The notes under the pieces were generated by a model, which did no database searches, was not told the DNA's origin, and saw only the letters and a list, made by a program, of their open reading frames with translations. A stretch of DNA of 24,865 nt from an uncultured bacterium (GTDB lineage Bacteria; Actinomycetota; Aquicultoria; SKW223), in the NCBI GenBank assembly GCA_938042205.1, contig CALIRS010000025.1, positions 1-24,865 on the forward strand, read 5' to 3'. Positions 15,462-24,858 of the stretch are shown one piece after another (position 1 is the stretch's first letter; each line of letters begins with the position of its first letter). The position numbers and the translations under genes are program-made.

Positions 15462-15490
15462 TTGAAAAAATTACACAAGTAATATATACT
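15462..15490 (+). promoter_or_regulatory. Sigma70-type promoter of the tetR-MMPL operon
   Basis: TTGAAA (15462-15467), 17 nt spacer, TATACT (15485-15490). Confidence 0.8.
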
Positions 15491-15508
15491 GACTGACCAG
15501 TCAGTCAG
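15489..15508. promoter_or_regulatory. Palindromic operator, probable TetR binding site
   Basis: Perfect 9-2-9 palindrome ctgactgac-ca-gtcagtcag overlapping the -10 end, the likely start site and the start of the SD aggagg. Confidence 0.82.
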
Positions 15509-15519
15509 GAGGTAAGATT

Positions 15520-16134
15520 TTGAACACTACTGAAACCCATACTTCCCGTCAGAAGATTATCGACACCGCAGAGAAACTTTTCGCTGAAAAGGGCTTTCAC
15601 TCAGTAAGCCTCAATCAAATAGCCCAGGCTGCTGGCATCTCTAAGAGCCTCATCCTTTACCACTTCACAGACAAAGATTCACTTTACAAATCAGTTATCG
15701 AAAGAGTTGTCTCTTACCTACAGGAAAATCTCCTCAAAATCCTTTCCACATCACTCCAGCCTGATAAGAAAATAGCCTTTTTCATCGAAGAATACTTTAA
15801 CCTTCTTGAGAGTCGCGAAGCTTCTCTCCATATCTTGGTTCGTGAAATGTCAAACCTGGAAACACCTATCACAAAATACCTTTTCTCAAATCTGAGAAAT
15901 CTCGTTAACGCAATCTCTTCAGTTATTGAGAAAGGTATAAAGCAGAAAATCTTTAAAGAAGTTGACCCTGAGCAAACAGCAATATCACTTCTTGGGATTA
16001 TGAACGCTCATATTGCTGCACGTATTATCGGTTCCGGTAATAAACAAATAGTAGCCCCTGAACAACATAATATCCAGCAAACCTCGGAAATCTGCAAAAC
16101 CATATTTTTCAAAGGAATTGAGGATGCCGAATAA
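15520..16134 (+). CDS. TetR/AcrR family transcriptional regulator
   Basis: KIIDTAEKLFAEKGFHSVSLNQIAQAAGISKSLILYHFTDKDSL HTH; SD aggagg; TTG start. Confidence 0.95.
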   Translation: MNTTETHTSRQKIIDTAEKLFAEKGFHSVSLNQIAQAAGISKSLILYHFTDKDSLYKSVIERVVSYLQENLLKILSTSLQPDKKIAFFIEEYFNLLESREASLHILVREMSNLETPITKYLFSNLRNLVNAISSVIEKGIKQKIFKEVDPEQTAISLLGIMNAHIAARIIGSGNKQIVAPEQHNIQQTSEICKTIFFKGIEDAE

Positions 16135-18212
16135 TGCTTACCCAGTTTTCTAAATTCGTGGTTAAAAATAGAGTGTTTATCCTGCTTGCAGGAATTATTC
16201 TTGCCGCCATCGGCCTTTACGGTACCAGTAAGCTTCAGATAAACTACGATATTTACTCTTACCTCCCTCAGAACGTCCCATCAACCAAAGGTATTCGTAT
16301 CGTCAATAAAAATTTCAAAATGGGAACTTCAGCGCAAATCCTTTTAGATAATAAGTCCGATACAGAAATCCTCCAGCTTAAAAAAACCATAGAAAAAATT
16401 GATGGAGTTGAAAAAGTTGTCTGGGCAGGTGATCTTGCAGATCTAACAGTGCCCAGAGAATTTTGGCCTGAGGAATTAACCGAAAACTACTACTCAAAAA
16501 ACCACACTCTAATTCATGTTTATTTTGAGAAAGAAGCTCAAAATCCTTCTACTAAAAAAGCCTTCTCGGAACTTACTTCTCTTATCAAAAGAAACGGTGG
16601 GTTTGTCGCCGGTTCTGTTGCCATCTCCTCAGATATCGAAAAGACAATGCAAGAGGAAATGCAAAGGTTCTTTCTAGCAACAATAATACTCGTCACCATA
16701 GTTCTCCTCCTGACTATTCCTTCAGTTCTCATCCCGGTTCTTTTTATGATGACTATCGGACTGTCAGTTCTTATAAACATGGGGATAAGTTACTTTCTCG
16801 GACATGATATTTCCTACATCACCCGCTCAATTGCTCTACCGTTACAATTCGCGGTCTCCATGGACTATGCACTTTTTCTCTATCACCGTTTCAAAGAAGA
16901 AAAGTCACGTTCCCCTGAAGATAAGGCAATGGAAAATGCTATTGTGTCCACATTCAAATCAATTAGTGCTGCCAGCCTAACAACAATAGCTGGTTTTTTA
17001 TCGCTCACTTCAATGAGGCTTGAATTTGGAAGCGATATTGGTCTTACGCTTGCACGTGGTGTCCTGATAACATTTTTTTGTGTAGTAACCTTCCTTCCAT
17101 CTCTGATACTTACTTTTAGTCCTTTAATTGATAGAATCTCTCATAAAACTTACCTCCCCGATTTCGTAAGAGTGGACAATTTCATCACCAGACATGCGAA
17201 TACTTTCACCATAATTTTCATTGCTTTACTTGCCATCGGGCTTTGTGGAAGTCAGCTCATAAGAATGAACTTTAATTTAGAACAGGGAATGCCTTCTGAT
17301 TTGCCATCTATAAAAGCCTCAGAAACCATTTCAAATGAATTTGGTAAAAAAGATACCGTTTTTATCGTCTTTAGTGACGAAGGCAACCTCAACCAGATTG
17401 ACCATGTAGTAAAAAAAATTGAAAAAGCAAAAGGTGTAAATTCGATTTTTGGATATACAACGCTTGTAGATCCAGCAATTCCAGAAGACCTTGTTCCAGA
17501 GAAAGTGAAAAAGCAGTTTGTCAAGAACGGAAACTACCTTTACACAGTAGACCTTTTTTATTCTCCGCGAGAGCCCGAGTCAAAGGCAGTCTTATCTTCA
17601 ATAGAGAAAATCCTCAAAGAAAATAATATAAAAGCATATCTTACTGGTACTTCAGCTATGATCAAAGATATTGAAGATATTTCCAATGAAGATTCCGCCC
17701 GGGTCAATTTAGTTTCTGTATTTGCTATTTTCCTGATAATATTGATCGCTTTCCGTTCGTTTTCCATTCCTTTAGTGCTAATTGCATCGATAGAAACAGC
17801 AATTTTAATAAACCAGACTTTATATATTTTTTCGGGAGCCGAAATTCCGTTCGTGGCAGCTTTAGCAATTGGAGCGATTCAACTCGGTTCAACTGTCGAT
17901 TACTCTATCCTGATGACCACAAGATATGAAGAAGAACTTAAGAAAACTGGGAACAGATTCACTGCAATTAGCAAAGCAATCCAGGAATCATCTCAAACTA
18001 TTCTGGTGAGTGCAGGAACCATGTTTGCGGCAACCATAGGGATGGCTGTCCTTGGCACTATGGAAATAATCAAATCACTGGGGATACTTATCTCACGAGG
18101 AGCGGTTATCAGCTTCTTTTCAGTAGTTTTTCTCCTGCCAGCTCTACTGGTGGTATTTCAAAAAGTTTATGAAAAAACAAGTTTTAAATGGCCACAGGAG
18201 GTTAAAGATTGA
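16134..18212 (+). CDS. MMPL/RND family transporter
   Basis: Two 1+5 TM halves with extracytoplasmic domains; conserved TM Asp-Tyr pairs (SMDYALF, TVDYSIL); start overlaps the tetR stop (TAATG). Confidence 0.93.
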   Translation: MLTQFSKFVVKNRVFILLAGIILAAIGLYGTSKLQINYDIYSYLPQNVPSTKGIRIVNKNFKMGTSAQILLDNKSDTEILQLKKTIEKIDGVEKVVWAGDLADLTVPREFWPEELTENYYSKNHTLIHVYFEKEAQNPSTKKAFSELTSLIKRNGGFVAGSVAISSDIEKTMQEEMQRFFLATIILVTIVLLLTIPSVLIPVLFMMTIGLSVLINMGISYFLGHDISYITRSIALPLQFAVSMDYALFLYHRFKEEKSRSPEDKAMENAIVSTFKSISAASLTTIAGFLSLTSMRLEFGSDIGLTLARGVLITFFCVVTFLPSLILTFSPLIDRISHKTYLPDFVRVDNFITRHANTFTIIFIALLAIGLCGSQLIRMNFNLEQGMPSDLPSIKASETISNEFGKKDTVFIVFSDEGNLNQIDHVVKKIEKAKGVNSIFGYTTLVDPAIPEDLVPEKVKKQFVKNGNYLYTVDLFYSPREPESKAVLSSIEKILKENNIKAYLTGTSAMIKDIEDISNEDSARVNLVSVFAIFLIILIAFRSFSIPLVLIASIETAILINQTLYIFSGAEIPFVAALAIGAIQLGSTVDYSILMTTRYEEELKKTGNRFTAISKAIQESSQTILVSAGTMFAATIGMAVLGTMEIIKSLGILISRGAVISFFSVVFLLPALLVVFQKVYEKTSFKWPQEVKD

Positions 18213-20044
18213 TGAGTAATAAAATTTTTCCTCTGACAGGATTAGCTAAAGTCTTGATTGGAGGTGTAAGCTTCCTGCTTCTTTTCTCTTCTTCGTTAAC
18301 CGCAATTTCCTTCTCAGCCGCTCTTCCAGTAAAACCTGAAAAAGTAGTAGATGATGAAACTGTTTATGCCATTTATGATGCTTCTGGTAAGTGGGAAAAG
18401 ACAATTGTCATAGATTGGTTAAGAATTGTTGCTAACGGAAAAGTCATTATTGAAGACGTTTTTAAAGGAACTAAAGCTGAAAATCTGAAAGGAAGCGAAA
18501 AGCCAGTTATAAAAAACGGATTTATCCGCTGGACTTTAAATGTAAATGGAGAGAGGGATTTTTATTATCGAATTGATACCCGCAGAGAACCACCTCTCTC
18601 GGTTGAAGTTAAATATTTCATAGATGGTAAGGAGGTTGATCCGGAAGAGCTTGCAGGTAAAAGTGGTAAGTTAAAGATTGTGGTCAAAGTCAAGAATAAA
18701 CTAAGAAAAATTGTTCCTGTCCCTTACACCAATGCTGATGGAAGGGTTGTCGAGAGAAAAGAAGAAATTTTCGTGCCTTTGCTAACTACTGTTAACCTGA
18801 GTTTTTTATCTTCCAGATTCGATAACATAAAGACTGAAGGTGGATTGCTGAATGTTTCGGGAGAAAAGACCAGTATAATGTGGATGCTTTTCCCTCAGGG
18901 GGAAGAAGAAGCTATTATTGAAATGGACGGGAAAAATATAGAGCTTGATCCGATAATGATTTCTGCATTCCCTCAGCTTTTAGAGTCCAGGGAAATAGAA
19001 ATGGAGAACCAATTTGAACAGCTTAAAGAAGGGCTTGAAGGTTTGTCTATTCTTTCTGGAGCTCAGATCAAGGTACTTGGTTATCTTGAGAAAAGAATTG
19101 ATGTTTCAAAATTCAGTCAATTTGCGTCAATAAGCAGTCAGTTTAAATCATTTCAGGGAGGCATTTCTTCACTTTATAACGGTTTAGATGGCATAAACCA
19201 GCTCTTGAATGGGCAGATAACAGCTTTAGAAGGAATTGTTCAGGGGATCAACTCGGATCAGTTTAGTTCACTCACCGATTTAAGCAATGCTATTGATGAC
19301 TTATCAACTGGATTAAAATCAATAAAAACCGGGCTTGAAGGGATATCAGCCGGGCTTGATGGACTAATACAGAGCAATGAAGAACTATCTCAACTTGCAA
19401 ATGAAAGGGCAGCATATTATGGTTCTGACACCACTCTTACCGCCCTCGCGAATGGTTTATCAGCACAAAGATCGGAACTCAATAATCTAAAAGCAGGCCT
19501 CAATGCCATTATTATTTCACTGGATGAAGTTGTTGCTGCCACTGATCTCATCTCCAGTCAATCACAGAGTTTTAACCAGATCCCTGCAGCTTTCGAAGAA
19601 ATTCGTAAATCGCTAATTGCCATCATAAATGGTGGAAATATCGGAGGAAGTAATCTTCCTGGACTGAGAACCACCTCTGAAAGAGTTAAGCAAATTTCTA
19701 TAGCACTAGGACAATCATCTTCCGCAATCAGCAAAATTGGTGGTCAGTTCGAAGCCCTTTCAGAAATTCCTCAAATGCTTCTCGTTTTGAAAGAAACACT
19801 CATCGCCCTGCAAAGTGGCGGGATACTTCAAGAAAATTACCTTCCCGGGCTTAAACAGAGCGAAGATGCACTTAATGAGATGGCAACTGGAGTAGGGGAA
19901 GGCCTTGAAAAAATAAGATTTGGTACTTCTCTAAAAGAAGTTCTTCAGAAAGAAGCAGAGAATTACGATACCTTCATCGGAAAACCTGAAAATGCTAATG
20001 GTAGAGTTCGCTTTATTTTGAAAATTGAAGGTATCAAAAGATGA
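18212..20044 (+). CDS. Secreted or membrane-anchored coiled-coil protein with X-X-X-Leu-X-X-Gly heptads (YhgE/Pip-N-like, no C-terminal TM domain)
   Basis: Signal/TM N-terminus; DETVYAIYDASG and YFIDGKEVDPEELAGKSGKLKI head domain; LxxG heptads; C-terminal YDTFIGKPENANGRVRFILKIEGI; start overlaps the MMPL stop (TGATG) with SD AGGAGG. Confidence 0.82.
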   Translation: MSNKIFPLTGLAKVLIGGVSFLLLFSSSLTAISFSAALPVKPEKVVDDETVYAIYDASGKWEKTIVIDWLRIVANGKVIIEDVFKGTKAENLKGSEKPVIKNGFIRWTLNVNGERDFYYRIDTRREPPLSVEVKYFIDGKEVDPEELAGKSGKLKIVVKVKNKLRKIVPVPYTNADGRVVERKEEIFVPLLTTVNLSFLSSRFDNIKTEGGLLNVSGEKTSIMWMLFPQGEEEAIIEMDGKNIELDPIMISAFPQLLESREIEMENQFEQLKEGLEGLSILSGAQIKVLGYLEKRIDVSKFSQFASISSQFKSFQGGISSLYNGLDGINQLLNGQITALEGIVQGINSDQFSSLTDLSNAIDDLSTGLKSIKTGLEGISAGLDGLIQSNEELSQLANERAAYYGSDTTLTALANGLSAQRSELNNLKAGLNAIIISLDEVVAATDLISSQSQSFNQIPAAFEEIRKSLIAIINGGNIGGSNLPGLRTTSERVKQISIALGQSSSAISKIGGQFEALSEIPQMLLVLKETLIALQSGGILQENYLPGLKQSEDALNEMATGVGEGLEKIRFGTSLKEVLQKEAENYDTFIGKPENANGRVRFILKIEGIKR

Positions 20045-20120: not shown

Positions 20121-20197
<77 letters not shown>

Positions 20198-20459: not shown

Positions 20460-22262
20460 TTATTGCCCCACCCAAATGGTAATAGTACTTCCAACAACCA
20501 CTTTCTGGTTTGCTTCAGGCGACTGCTGAAGCACCTTCCCTACCTGTGCTTCATCTAAAACCTCAACATACTGAATATCTACCATTAATCCGAGATTCTG
20601 TAGTTTTTGACGTGCATTAAGTGAATCTTCTCCCACAACATTTGGAACTGTCACAATAGAAGGTCCTTTCGAAACCACAAGAAGCACGGTCTCACCCTTC
20701 TTTAAGGTATCTGAAGCTGGCGGACTCTGTCGAATTACTTTTCCTTTCTCAACAGTATTGCTTTCTTCTTCACTAACGCGGTATTTTAAGCCAACTTTGG
20801 AAAGAGCCTGCTTTGCTTTCTCAAGTGTCAAGCCTTCGACGTCAGGAACTATCACCACTTCCACGCCCTTAGAAATAGTAATATTAACCACGCTTCCTTT
20901 ACTGACTAACGTTCCCGGTTTAGGACTCTGTCTAAGAATTGCATCAGCTGGAATCCTGTCAGAATGCTCGTAATTAACGTCTCCAATGCGAAGCCCCAAT
21001 TCACCAAGTATCTGGCCTGCTTCCAGCTCGGATTTCCCTATTAAATCAGGAACTTCCACAGGTGCTTCTCCTTTTGAAACCACTACTTTTACAGTGGAAC
21101 CCTTCTTCACTTTCGTGCCAGGTTCAGGCTTTTGTGAAATAACCTTTCCAGCTTTATAAATACTCGAATATTCTTCTCTTTCGACAGAAAGCTTCAAATC
21201 CTTTTCTTTAGCTAACTTCTTAGCCTGTTCAAGAGAGACGTCTACTAATTTTGGAACTTCTGTCATTGAAGCTACTATTTTTGCCTGATAATACCAGAGT
21301 GCCGCTACTGCGCTTCCAAGAAAAAGTAGTACCAGCAAACTTGCAATGATAGCCCACAAAGATGCTCTTCTTTTCGGCAATTTTAATTCCGAGGGTTTAA
21401 GCACTACTGTTTTTTCATAAGACTTGCCAAGTGCTTCAACAGTTCTTCCTTCTTCCAGCCGTCTTAAGTCTGCTATTAACTCGTCGGCACTTTGATATCT
21501 ATCGAAAGGGTCTTTGGCTATTGCCTTCAGAATAATTGCTTCCAGTTCAACAGGTATTGAAGGATTGAGAGCGGACGGTTTAGCAGGTATTTCGTTTGCA
21601 TGCTTAAGAGCCACGGAAACTGCAGAATCTCCCTCAAAGGGAATATTACCGGTAAGCATTTCATACATTATCACTCCGAGCGAATAAATATCACTAACTT
21701 CAGTTGCCGGAAGACCCTGTGCCTGCTCGGGAGAAAAATAATGGACCGAGCCCATCACTGTCCCGGTATCTGTTAATGAGGAAGACTTTGCCCTGGCAAT
21801 ACCAAAATCCATTACTTTTACCAGACCATCATGAGTAATAATAATGTTTTGTGGCTTAACATCTCGATGTACTACATCGTTCTTATGAGCGAAGGAAAGA
21901 GCGCGCGCCACCTGCTTGGTAATATCTATAGCAAAAGGAACTTCAAGGGCTCCCTTCTTGTTGATTAAATACTTCAAAGTATCCCCTTCAATATATTCCA
22001 TCACTATAAAATAGGTGCCGTTTTCCTCGCCCCAGTCATAAACACTGACAATATTTGGATGGTTTAGATTGGCTGCTGCCTGAGCTTCGCGGCGAAATCG
22101 GCTGACAAAGTTCTCTTCCTGTGCTAATTTTGAATGCATTACTTTTATGGCAACTCTCCTATCAAGGTTGATATCATACCCGAGGTAAACGTCAGCCATG
22201 CCCCCGCTGCCAATCTTTTCCAGTACCTTATATCTTTCTTTGATTATTTTCCCCGTTTTCAT
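20460..22262 (-). CDS. pknB: Stk1/PknB family Ser/Thr kinase with TM and four PASTA domains
   Basis: IGSGGMADVY, VAIK, HRDVKPQN, DFG, YFSPE; TM segment; four VP.(L/V)(V/I/E)(G/D) PASTA repeats. Confidence 0.96.
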   Translation of the reverse strand: MKTGKIIKERYKVLEKIGSGGMADVYLGYDINLDRRVAIKVMHSKLAQEENFVSRFRREAQAAANLNHPNIVSVYDWGEENGTYFIVMEYIEGDTLKYLINKKGALEVPFAIDITKQVARALSFAHKNDVVHRDVKPQNIIITHDGLVKVMDFGIARAKSSSLTDTGTVMGSVHYFSPEQAQGLPATEVSDIYSLGVIMYEMLTGNIPFEGDSAVSVALKHANEIPAKPSALNPSIPVELEAIILKAIAKDPFDRYQSADELIADLRRLEEGRTVEALGKSYEKTVVLKPSELKLPKRRASLWAIIASLLVLLFLGSAVAALWYYQAKIVASMTEVPKLVDVSLEQAKKLAKEKDLKLSVEREEYSSIYKAGKVISQKPEPGTKVKKGSTVKVVVSKGEAPVEVPDLIGKSELEAGQILGELGLRIGDVNYEHSDRIPADAILRQSPKPGTLVSKGSVVNITISKGVEVVIVPDVEGLTLEKAKQALSKVGLKYRVSEEESNTVEKGKVIRQSPPASDTLKKGETVLLVVSKGPSIVTVPNVVGEDSLNARQKLQNLGLMVDIQYVEVLDEAQVGKVLQQSPEANQKVVVGSTITIWVGQ

Positions 22263-22312
22263 CGCTCTTAATAATAAATTTTTTTACTGGTAGTAACAAC
22301 TTTTTGAATGTC

Positions 22313-23656
22313 TTACCTGAGAAGAGCCTCTTTTACTATTTCCGCAAATATTTTCGCGGCCACATTTCCACCCTTTCCACCATGTTCTACAAGTACGCAA
22401 GCAGCAATTTCAGGATCATCAGCCGGGGCAAACCCGATAAACCAGGAATGAGGCTCTCCGCTTTTAACTTCTGCTGTACCTGTTTTCCCAGCAACAGCGA
22501 TTCCCCTGATTCGAGCTGCTCTCCCTGTTCCGCTCTCAACTACTTCAACCATCGCTTTCTTGACTTCAAGCGCAGTGCTTTCAGAAACAATTCTTCGAGG
22601 GTTTTTCTGATTATCAATCATTTTTTCCCGAGTAAGTGAAGGAAAGATCAATAATCCATCATTAGCAACCATCTGAGCTATCATTGCCATAGAAAGTGGA
22701 GTTACCAGAAGGTCAGCTTGACCTACAGATGCCCAACCAAGAGTTACTTTTTCATTAAGGTTTTCCGGGAGATGCCCTTTCCTCACTGGAATGTCAAAAC
22801 CAGGGTCACTGTCGATTTTTAAATCTCTGGCAATCTCTTTGAAATTATTAGCCCCCAGTTTCAAACCAATTTGAGCAAAAACTGTATTTACAGAATGGAC
22901 AAATGCCTTTTCAACGGTAATTTTTCCATAACTTTTTTTACCATAATTGGTAATTCTAAATCCTCCAACAGGAAAAATCGCTGGAGCTTCATAAATATCA
23001 TCAAGCGAACCATCTTCATCCAGGTATTTTGCTAAAATAACAGTTTTGAAAGTGGAGCCCGGGGGATAAAGACCGGCGGTTGCCCTGTTCAAAAGAGGTT
23101 TTCGCGTATCCTTCAGCAACGCCTTAAAATCCTCATTTAGCCTGTTCGGGTCAAACGAAGGAAATGAATAAAGACCTCTTACAGCACCTGAGCGAGCATC
23201 AATTACCACAATAGCTCCCGGGGATTTTAATATTTCATGAGCCTTTTTCTGAATAGCTGGGTTAAGACTAGTTATGATGTCTTTCCCACGCGGTTTCTCT
23301 TTCCCTAACCAGAAATAATCCTCAGATGGAGGAGAAAGTATATTATCATAGCTTGCTTCAAGCCCTGATTTTCCATACTTGATGCTGGCATAACCAACGA
23401 CATTTGCAAATATGGAACCATAGGGATAAACCCTTTTTCTTCCCTTTTGCGTAGCAACGCTTTCAGCGAGCACCGAACCATCTTCTGACAGTATCTTCCC
23501 ACGTTCCAATATGTTTTCAGATATGAGATTTCTTTTATTTGCGGGATGTGCTCTTAACTCTTCTGAGTTAAACACACTCCATCGAAGAAAAAATATAATA
23601 AGCAGAATAAACACTAAAAATGAGCTAATTATCAAATCTCTCAGGGCACGATCCAT
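22313..23656 (-). CDS. pbpA: Class B penicillin-binding transpeptidase (PbpA-like)
   Basis: N-terminal TM, N.R...RG.I motif, PPGSTFK (SxxK), SVN (SxN), KTG; coupled to rodA. Confidence 0.92.
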   Translation of the reverse strand: MDRALRDLIISSFLVFILLIIFFLRWSVFNSEELRAHPANKRNLISENILERGKILSEDGSVLAESVATQKGRKRVYPYGSIFANVVGYASIKYGKSGLEASYDNILSPPSEDYFWLGKEKPRGKDIITSLNPAIQKKAHEILKSPGAIVVIDARSGAVRGLYSFPSFDPNRLNEDFKALLKDTRKPLLNRATAGLYPPGSTFKTVILAKYLDEDGSLDDIYEAPAIFPVGGFRITNYGKKSYGKITVEKAFVHSVNTVFAQIGLKLGANNFKEIARDLKIDSDPGFDIPVRKGHLPENLNEKVTLGWASVGQADLLVTPLSMAMIAQMVANDGLLIFPSLTREKMIDNQKNPRRIVSESTALEVKKAMVEVVESGTGRAARIRGIAVAGKTGTAEVKSGEPHSWFIGFAPADDPEIAACVLVEHGGKGGNVAAKIFAEIVKEALLR

Positions 23657-24858
23657 TTTTTCTTTTCACTTCCAAATTTCATTATTAAAGCTAACACGAT
23701 GAAAGATGACACGAATGAACTTCCCCCATAACTGAAAAACGGCATAGTCAGGCCAGTTAGTGGAAACAACCGGAGAGTTCCTCCTGTAACAATCGCTGCT
23801 TGAACAAAAAGAGATAGCGAAGCAACAGATACAAATATTTTCCCGAAACTGGATTCCGTAATCCGGGCAAGGGAAAGACTAATTATCGAAAAAAGAAGGT
23901 AAAGTGACAGAATAAGCATACCACCGGCTATCCCGGTTGCTTCTGCCCAGACAGGAAACACCATATCAGTATGTGCTGCTGGCAACAAACCAGGAAAACC
24001 GTTGCCAAGCCCTCTTCCCAAAATCCCTCCTTCAGCAAATGCAAATAATGACTGAACTATCTGATATGAGCGACCATAAACATCCTGAAAAGGATTTATC
24101 CAGATCTCGAACCTCGCCCTTACATGTGGGAAAAGATAGTACGAACCTGTCGCGCCGATTATAAAAAATAGCAAACCACCTGTGGGATATCTCTTTTTCC
24201 CGGTAGTTACATACAGCCCGATAAGAAAAGTAAAAAGAATAAGAAGAGAAAAACCAAGGTCTTTTAATATAACCAGTGATATTAGTGCAAAACCAGCAAT
24301 AAGAAGCGCAGGTCCAAGATAACGAATCTCAAACAGAGCATTCGAAGAGACAGTTGCCCTGGCAAGCAACATCTTATGTTCCGCAAAATAACCTGCTGTA
24401 AAGAGGAAGAAAAATATCTTGGCAAATTCAGATGGCTGAAAGGTGACTGGTCCGACGTCAATCCAGAGTCTGGAACCTCCTTTGACAACTCCTGAAAACA
24501 TCGGCATTAAAAAAAGCAAAAGAGCGACAACTCCAAGAATATATCTGTACTCATAAACCCTGGTAAAAAACTTCAATATTGCTATGGTTGCCATAAAAAA
24601 TGCCAGACCCGCAAGCGATATATAAAGCTGGTGGATAAAAAATTTTTCATCTATTTGAAGCATGTTAATAAACCCAAGCCCTGAAATTAAGGCACAAACA
24701 GGCAATATGATTTCAGAAGAGTCAGGCAGAAAAAAAGAAAGTGCGAAGCTGGCAATAAAAAAAGGAGCAATTGAAACCAATGCCAAGAGTAACCCCTGAT
24801 CTGAAAGAACAGAAAATCCAAATGCCAGACATGCCCAAACACCCGATAGTAAAATCAA
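23641..24858 (-). CDS. rodA: FtsW/RodA/SpoVE family SEDS glycosyltransferase (probably 5'-truncated by the window edge)
   Basis: GSRLWI..GPVTFQPSEFAK, DLG, RFEIWINPF, YQIVQSL, HTDMVF, PLTGLTMPFFSYGGSS; reading frame stays open to the window end. Confidence 0.92.
   Translation of the reverse strand: MILLSGVWACLAFGFSVLSDQGLLLALVSIAPFFIASFALSFFLPDSSEIILPVCALISGLGFINMLQIDEKFFIHQLYISLAGLAFFMATIAILKFFTRVYEYRYILGVVALLLFLMPMFSGVVKGGSRLWIDVGPVTFQPSEFAKIFFFLFTAGYFAEHKMLLARATVSSNALFEIRYLGPALLIAGFALISLVILKDLGFSLLILFTFLIGLYVTTGKKRYPTGGLLFFIIGATGSYYLFPHVRARFEIWINPFQDVYGRSYQIVQSLFAFAEGGILGRGLGNGFPGLLPAAHTDMVFPVWAEATGIAGGMLILSLYLLFSIISLSLARITESSFGKIFVSVASLSLFVQAAIVTGGTLRLFPLTGLTMPFFSYGGSSFVSSFIVLALIMKFGSEKKKWIVP

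Follow-up and report, generated by a model that had tools for sequence, protein, structure and literature searches.

The mycobacterial transporter MmpL5 has three subunits that are joined by a 13-nm coiled-coil stalk, the removal of which abolishes both the trimer and efflux, and the membrane helix of its accessory protein MmpS5 packs between the MmpL5 subunits (PMC12122801). Accessory proteins, MmpS5 among them, are known to influence the stability or the assembly of MmpL proteins in mycobacteria (PMC12122801). On the basis of an AlphaFold2 model and genetics, the MmpL5 coiled coils have further been proposed to form a 13-nm six-helix barrel with a methionine-lined lumen of 7-9 Å (PMC12501195). 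Here, we describe a three-gene operon within a stretch of 24,865 nucleotides (contig CALIRS010000025.1, positions 1 to 24,865; hereafter the window) from an uncultured bacterium of the Actinomycetota, which encodes a TetR-family repressor, an MMPL transporter and a 610-residue partner protein that is predicted to carry a long helical stalk. To our knowledge, structural models of RND pumps from monoderm bacteria come only from mycobacterial MmpL4/5, in which the stalk lies within the pump, and how the RND pumps of single-membrane cells deliver substrates beyond the membrane, through a thick wall, is poorly understood. What is new here is an RND/MMPL pump whose stalk is the product of a separate gene, an arrangement that is widespread and uncharacterised. 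We favour the reading, at a probability of about 0.6, that the operon encodes a TetR-repressed two-subunit export system in which the partner is a stoichiometric outside subunit with a stalk that acts in trans. A preliminary description of this DNA had likewise proposed a split MMPL-plus-stalk system, with the partner forming a tube that carries substrate; the split system is supported by a conserved gene unit, a transporter that lacks a stalk and a partner with a predicted hairpin, and neither the oligomeric, substrate-carrying tube nor its passage across an S-layer is.

The arrangement of the genes is compact. In the open reading frame list of the window, the three frames are co-oriented with a one-base overlap at each junction: a TAATG at 16130-16136 places the TetR stop codon over the MMPL start, and a TGATG at 18210-18214 places the MMPL stop codon over the ATG of the partner. 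Shine-Dalgarno-like sequences, GAGGA and AGGAGG, precede the MMPL and partner starts. The two overlaps thus bear out the initial proposal of three translationally coupled genes; the accompanying proposal of a single promoter and operator holds better for the operator than for the promoter. The palindrome core, TGACTGA-N4-TCAGTCA, lies 5' of the TetR gene in 12 of the 14 loci checked, window included, with a shorter ACTGA core in one locus (L013), and the proteins encoded at the palindrome-bearing loci are only ~33-44% identical to those of the window. The promoter scan, on the other hand, is at chance level for the region (13 sites, with 12.2 expected from shuffled sequence), and what lends weight to the promoter-like site is only its position beside the conserved operator. 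The product of the first gene has both the N-terminal helix-turn-helix and the C-terminal domain that define the TetR family, matching PF00440 (TetR_N; E 1.8e-16, 60.1 bits, cut-off 24) and PF17932 (TetR_C_24; E 4.7e-08, 33.7 bits, cut-off 26.4); among NCBIfam equivalogs, every match is under its cut-off. Together, operator, TetR, a stalk-less MMPL of ~700 residues and the partner, whose gene is translationally coupled, form one conserved unit.

How far does this unit extend beyond the window? An MMPL gene lies directly upstream of the partner gene, on the same strand, in all three close contexts with differing flanks, in Clostridium algidicarnis and one metagenome contig, in 18 of 18 species-genome loci for which upstream DNA is available (from Coriobacteriia, Anaerosomatales, metagenome-assembled genomes of other Actinomycetota, Bacillus methanolicus, Geobacillus proteiniphilus, Tepidibacillus and Desulfosporosinus) and in all five further representatives, including one from Butyrivibrio sp. 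VCB2006. The paired transporters are ~690-712 residues long and have no insert, and a TetR gene, either co-oriented or divergent, stands near most of the pairs. The profile search and gene neighbourhoods therefore confirm that the partner co-occurs with MMPL genes (3/3, 18/18 and 5/5 loci) and that, as the preliminary description had stated, similar pairs are found in Firmicutes, namely in Clostridia and Bacilli besides Actinomycetota. Its statement that no function has been characterised also stands: the homologues have no assigned function and bear only the names 'hypothetical protein' and 'putative membrane protein', and a full-text literature search returned no paper on the partner protein family.

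The family itself is large. The partner has 14 close homologues (34-78% identity) and ~85 remote ones that share mainly the membrane-proximal base domain described below. At 50% identity, a profile of this domain collects 5,917 clusters, of which 3,440 reach an E value of 1e-30 or better; the family, thousands of clusters strong, is found in gut Clostridia, Bacilli and Actinomycetota. The 150 best matches listed are proteins of 312-1328 residues, all with the base domain close to the N-terminus, and across the family the length of the stalk varies from ~200 to ~1000 residues. Some remote relatives bear the Pfam accession PF28175, and an entry for a domain of unknown function (DUF) may thus already exist for them. 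A search for base-domain fusions in proteins of 1069-3050 residues, which was a weak one, found none. Within the phylum, the base domain is present in 49 of 301 sampled genomes; these tallies include ten genomes flagged as unpublished, with base-domain matches in none of the ten.

The transporter is an unambiguous member of its family, matching PF03176 over two stretches (E 1.4e-75, 254.8 bits, cut-off 20.5); TIGR00833 and the HAE3 model TIGR00921 of NCBIfam match it below their cut-offs. Its hydropathy profile, which we read as blocks with single helices not resolved, gives a first transmembrane helix (TM1) at residues 5-34, a loop at 35-173, a hydrophobic block at 174-335, TM7 at 350-380, a second loop at 381-518 and a second hydrophobic block at 519-680. 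Two outside loops of ~140 residues each, after TM1 and TM7, fit the twelve-helix MMPL topology and leave no room for a coiled-coil insert, in agreement with what had been claimed for this protein. Nor is it a cluster I MmpL of the MmpL4/5 type: its second loop has ~138 residues, compared with the ~170-200-residue insert of that cluster. In an alignment of six MMPL orthologues, D244-Y245 and D589-Y590 are invariant, and we take these to match the Asp-Tyr pairs of the MmpL3 proton relay, with assignment to TM4 and TM10 by position only. Judged by its sequence, the transporter is one that keeps both proton-relay pairs and has no stalk of its own.

The partner, in turn, matches no curated family in Pfam or NCBIfam, where it draws only weak coiled-coil noise. 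Its AlphaFold2 model, built on 14 homologues, has a mean predicted local distance difference test (pLDDT) score of 76.5 and consists of an N-terminal hydrophobic helix, a beta-sandwich base and a long helical region (Table 1). The hydrophobic segment (residues 5-40) is the sole hydropathy peak of the protein and has no lipobox, since it contains no Cys; it appears to be either a signal anchor or a long signal peptide, with cleavage possible after SFS-A. This agrees with the earlier suggestion that the partner is exported, and in our reading the protein is anchored or exported and bears a long helical hairpin. The base domain is the conserved core of the family, the stalk being poorly conserved, and reaches a pLDDT of 94.3 when folded alone on 40 diverse sequences. 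Its best match among solved folds is the mu-homology domain of clathrin adaptors (Z 13.1, rmsd, i.e. root-mean-square deviation, 4.4 over 202 residues, with the whole model), which with the base alone falls to Z 9.5 (rmsd 4.6, 184 residues), only ~1.5 above generic Ig-like matches; Foldseek returns E values of 3e-07 and 2e-05 at a TM-score of ~0.45, with a sequence identity of 8-17%. We regard this likeness between model and solved structures as a fold resemblance only and claim neither shared descent nor shared function. Chains of MmpS, adaptors, YhgE and EsaA are not among the fold matches listed for the base domain, an absence that excludes none of them, and the base-domain profile finds nothing meaningful among PDB sequences.

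Beyond the base, the ~320 residues of the helical region are read, from the model, as one long antiparallel hairpin that leaves the base and rejoins it, with a turn near residues 403-406 and small beta-hairpins at 474-483 and 537-544. Fully extended, such a hairpin would reach up to ~20 nm, an estimate from ~138 outbound helical residues at 1.5 Å each. The return to the base is also apparent at the C-terminus. Structural alignments that cover the base domain extend from residue 42 to 607, and therefore the C-terminal strand would complete the N-terminal beta domain; in all 14 sequences compared, the tail motif Y585, F588, G590, G597, R600 and F601 is unchanged. The preliminary description had pictured globular parts at both ends of the protein; the N-terminal one is present as the beta domain, and in the model there is no separate C-terminal part, as the last strand rejoins the base.

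Table 1. Coordinates of the operon, its control elements, the parts of the partner protein, and related loci. Positions are those of the window, except for the last four rows, which carry the labels of their own loci.
Feature	Position	Strand	Basis or remark
Promoter-like site, TTGAAA-17-TATACT	15462-15490	+	Consensus scan, 10/12 matches
Candidate TetR operator, 20-bp palindrome CTGACTGACCAGTCAGTCAG	15489-15508	none	Overlaps the -10 element; conserved in relatives
TetR-family repressor, 204 residues, TTG start after GGAGG	15520-16134	+	Pfam domains
MMPL/RND transporter, 692 residues, without coiled-coil insert	16134-18212	+	PF03176
Partner (stalk) protein, 610 residues	18212-20044	+	ATG at 18212; alternative TTG start at 18209
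N-terminal hydrophobic helix, residues 10-33	18239-18310	+	Helix in model; hydropathy
Double beta-sandwich base domain, residues 44-253	18341-18970	+	pLDDT >90 in the whole-protein model
Helical region, residues 265-584	19004-19963	+	Model secondary structure, pLDDT 60-80
C-terminal strand, residues 599-605	20006-20026	+	AlphaFold2 model; within conserved tail
tRNA-Ile gene	20121-20197	convergent	Bounds the operon downstream
DUF1097-linked base-domain locus (tandem pairs)	L060:4874-7649		
DUF1097-linked base-domain locus (tandem pairs)	L060:8402-11074		
DUF1097-linked base-domain locus	L061:5852-9343		
DUF1097-linked base-domain locus	L065:5897-9392		

The sequence of the stalk is less regular than the ~300 residues of LxxG heptads that had been claimed for it, a claim that we find overstated. 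Residues 263-584 hold 17 [LIVM]xxG motifs, compared with 9.1 +/- 2.4 in shuffles, with in-phase runs that are only short (364, 371 and 378), and the entire partner has only eight strict LxxG motifs. Self-identity of the stalk is at its maximum at an offset of 7, with a second notable peak at an offset of 62. Additionally, the motif GL[ED]G[LI] occurs three times with an exact 50-residue spacing, at partner residues 274, 324 and 374 (window 19031-19852). The partner of the window has no match at E 0.1 to TIGR03057, the model of the 28-residue repeat (cut-off 18.6 bits), whereas all of the eight relatives that were scored, seven of which exceed 1,000 residues, reach 39-219 bits. As judged from these profile scores, the link of the family to xxxLxxG proteins is real, and the partner of the window is a degenerate relative.

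Set beside the known systems, MmpS5-MmpL5 and MmpS4-MmpL4 of M. tuberculosis are the nearest functional analogues. Both they and the system described here combine an MMPL-type RND transporter with an accessory protein that has an N-terminal membrane helix and a beta domain on the outside, and in both there is a long antiparallel helical stalk outside the membrane, here as predicted. The stalk, however, is placed differently, with ~170-196 residues inside the transporter MmpL5 and ~320 residues on the accessory protein here. The base of the partner has ~210 residues, compared with ~100 for the MmpS beta domain, and another best fold match, and the partner does not match the MmpS model PF05423 at E 0.1, so that the likeness is positional and topological only. 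MmpS5-MmpL5 has a dedicated repressor in Rv0678, which is of the MarR type whereas the repressor here is a TetR, and the present host is probably an ordinary monoderm that lacks a mycomembrane.

A second comparison is with the YhgE/Pip/EsaA/YueB proteins, in which an N-terminal membrane helix likewise leads into a long helical ectodomain whose far end comes back to the membrane. True TIGR03057 repeats are present in longer relatives of the partner, and one relative adjoins an ABC-2/DUF3533 permease, a type of membrane domain that YhgE/Pip carry in cis, fused to the helical ectodomain. The partner differs in that it has no C-terminal multi-pass domain of the ABC-2 type. It does not match TIGR03061, the N-terminal domain of YhgE/Pip, at E 0.1, and hhalign of the base-domain alignment against 12 YhgE N-terminal regions gives a probability of 0.1%; by sequence and by profile, the partner is not a YhgE/Pip/EsaA relative, and an identity with EsaA, one of the possibilities that would have undone the original proposal, is not borne out. 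TIGR03061 also finds no match in the genome of the window, the assembly of which is ~80% complete. Finally, adaptors such as AcrA, EmrA and HlyD resemble the partner as anchored accessory proteins with an alpha-hairpin that are encoded beside a transporter. EmrA, HlyD and LipC match the partner helices only, at Z 10-11, a level usual for any long helices; no HlyD or RND-MFP model in Pfam or NCBIfam matches the partner at E 0.1. The adaptors also differ from this system in their base, which in the partner is a double beta-sandwich, and here there is no outer-membrane channel for docking.

How might such a two-subunit exporter work? In the reading that we favour, TetR bound at the palindrome would repress the operon until a hydrophobic ligand releases it. 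The MMPL protein, driven by the proton gradient, would then draw its substrate, of a hydrophobic or amphiphilic kind, out of the membrane. The partner would sit beside the transporter, with its helix in the membrane and its base next to the outside domains of the transporter, a position that would resemble that of MmpS5 with its transmembrane helix and beta domain. Acting in trans, the hairpin would take the part that the built-in coiled coil plays in MmpL4/MmpL5, namely to keep the pump in an oligomer and to extend into the wall or across it. Solely by analogy with the general behaviour of the MMPL and TetR families, the substrate is probably hydrophobic or amphiphilic and derived from the membrane, and the same molecule would serve as the TetR-releasing ligand. 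We infer the contact between the subunits, the oligomeric state, the length of the stalk, the substrate class and the TetR ligand. A complex prediction for the MMPL protein with partner residues 1-262 scored 0.10 against a mark of 0.32, and we count it neither for nor against the contact.

Several observations weigh against an export system of this kind. In the phylum sample, 17 of 30 loci have no MMPL gene within 1.5 kb upstream, and therefore the base domain is not exclusive to MMPL; the 13 loci that do have an upstream MMPL all fall among the 16 best-scoring of the 30. A remote homologue of 958 residues (P0019) has no MMPL neighbour. The N-terminal segment of the partner could act as a signal peptide, the cleavage of which would set the protein free, and in the model the helical region has a pLDDT of only 60-80, with two gaps below 50. 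Stalk length is polymorphic between close relatives, the partners of loci L089 and L090 having 1328 and 1064 residues, as is the case in surface fibres.

This last point leads to the alternatives. The partner could be a surface fibre with a separate function, be it wall spacer, adhesin, envelope sensor or phage-receptor-like protein, that would require no more than an anchor protein in the membrane and for which the MMPL would be one of several interchangeable docks. The polymorphic stalk, the 50- and 62-residue repeats inside it and the remoter members that follow DUF1097 (four cases) or an ABC-2/DUF3533 permease (one case) would all fit such a fibre; moreover, the ectodomains of YhgE/Pip/YueB are fibre-like, and the architecture of the partner recalls them. 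However, a fibre does not readily account for the fact that, in three phyla-level groups, the partner gene is coupled to a TetR gene and to that of an MMPL without a stalk, stop codons overlapping start codons, and this broad coupling favours a stoichiometric functional unit over mere anchoring. Pfam and NCBIfam also reveal no adhesin, wall-binding or sortase motif in the partner, and we consider the fibre improbable. Marginally easier to entertain, though still unlikely, is that several partner molecules assemble on the MMPL into a hollow helical tube through which substrate crosses the wall. The six-helix barrel proposed for MmpL5, with its lumen of 7-9 Å, provides a model for such a conduit (PMC12501195). 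Small residues abound in the helical region (34 Gly, 39 Ser and 25 Ala among its 322 residues), which would suit a tube, and there is a match, albeit weak, of partner residues 349-468 to a designed six-helix barrel in the PDB (8qae, E 0.0016). On the other side, the monomer model offers helices of moderate confidence only, interrupted by two beta-hairpin inserts and two low-confidence breaks; Leu-x-x-Gly heptads fit tight two-helix packing equally well, and a family in which the stalk varies from ~200 to ~1000 residues is hard to square with a fixed conduit.

The least probable of the alternatives, which we consider very unlikely, is that the partner serves the assembly or stability of the MMPL, or regulates it by gating or by sensing substrate in the outer leaflet, with a stalk that has no role in transport. 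MmpS5 sets a precedent for such a protein (PMC12122801), and it is indeed the membrane-proximal base that is conserved here, the stalk being so only poorly. Yet stalks of more than 300 helical residues are kept family-wide, and of ~1000 in some members, which would be costly if the stalk had no function.

Beyond the favoured reading of a two-subunit exporter, we can picture a broader role for the base domain, one that we put forward tentatively and hold to be doubtful: it might mark a large unnamed family of in-trans stalk proteins of monoderms that plug most often into MMPL pumps lacking a stalk and also into ABC-2 permeases and DUF1097 proteins, with the wall-spanning helical stalk as a general, exchangeable module for extending the transporters of single-membrane cells across the wall. 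If this were true, in-trans stalk proteins would be the separate-gene counterpart of the stalks that are built into MmpL4/5 and YhgE/Pip. Because stalk and pump are products of different genes, genetics and biochemistry can tell their roles apart, and cultured, harmless carriers of the pair exist in Bacillus methanolicus, Geobacillus, Butyrivibrio and Clostridium algidicarnis.

A number of smaller observations concern the stalk and the loci of relatives. The 8qae entry, a designed single-chain six-helix antiparallel barrel, is the sole PDB sequence match of the partner (window 19256-19615), and the match may reflect composition only. For remoter Actinomycetota members, a small DUF1097 membrane protein takes the place of the MMPL, on the same strand and 5' of the base-domain gene, in four cases (Table 1), and in one case (L064:5297-8123) a 565-residue base-domain protein is encoded directly downstream of an ABC2_membrane_3/DUF3533 permease. 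L089:4001-7987 and L090:4001-7195, both on metagenome contigs, share a context of HAD hydrolase, His_Phos_1, divergent TetR and 704-residue MMPL genes, followed by L33-SecE-NusG.

As to the host, the source is a metagenome-assembled genome of 1.29 Mb in 251 contigs that is ~80% complete; it is small, at ~1.6 Mb if 80% complete. Downstream of the operon, pknB (with four PASTA repeats), pbpA (transpeptidase) and rodA/ftsW follow one another at 20460-24858 on the minus strand, and a row of pknB, pbpA and rodA is an arrangement typical of Actinomycetota. From these genes and from the closest genomes, which belong to uncultured Actinomycetota, we take the host to be a monoderm-type, small-genome actinobacterium with a peptidoglycan wall. 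An archaeal origin, which the HAE3 match and a protoglobin neighbour in locus L001 might have suggested, is rejected on account of the pknB-PASTA, pbpA and rodA genes on the contig. In the class to which the window belongs, the cassette occurs in the window's own family and in the sole other family of its order. The base domain is present in none of the 20 other class genomes listed, and an MMPL of any kind is found in only three of these 20, as scored in a phylum census of up to six MMPL candidates per genome. This patchy distribution within the class suggests gain, or repeated loss, of the whole unit.

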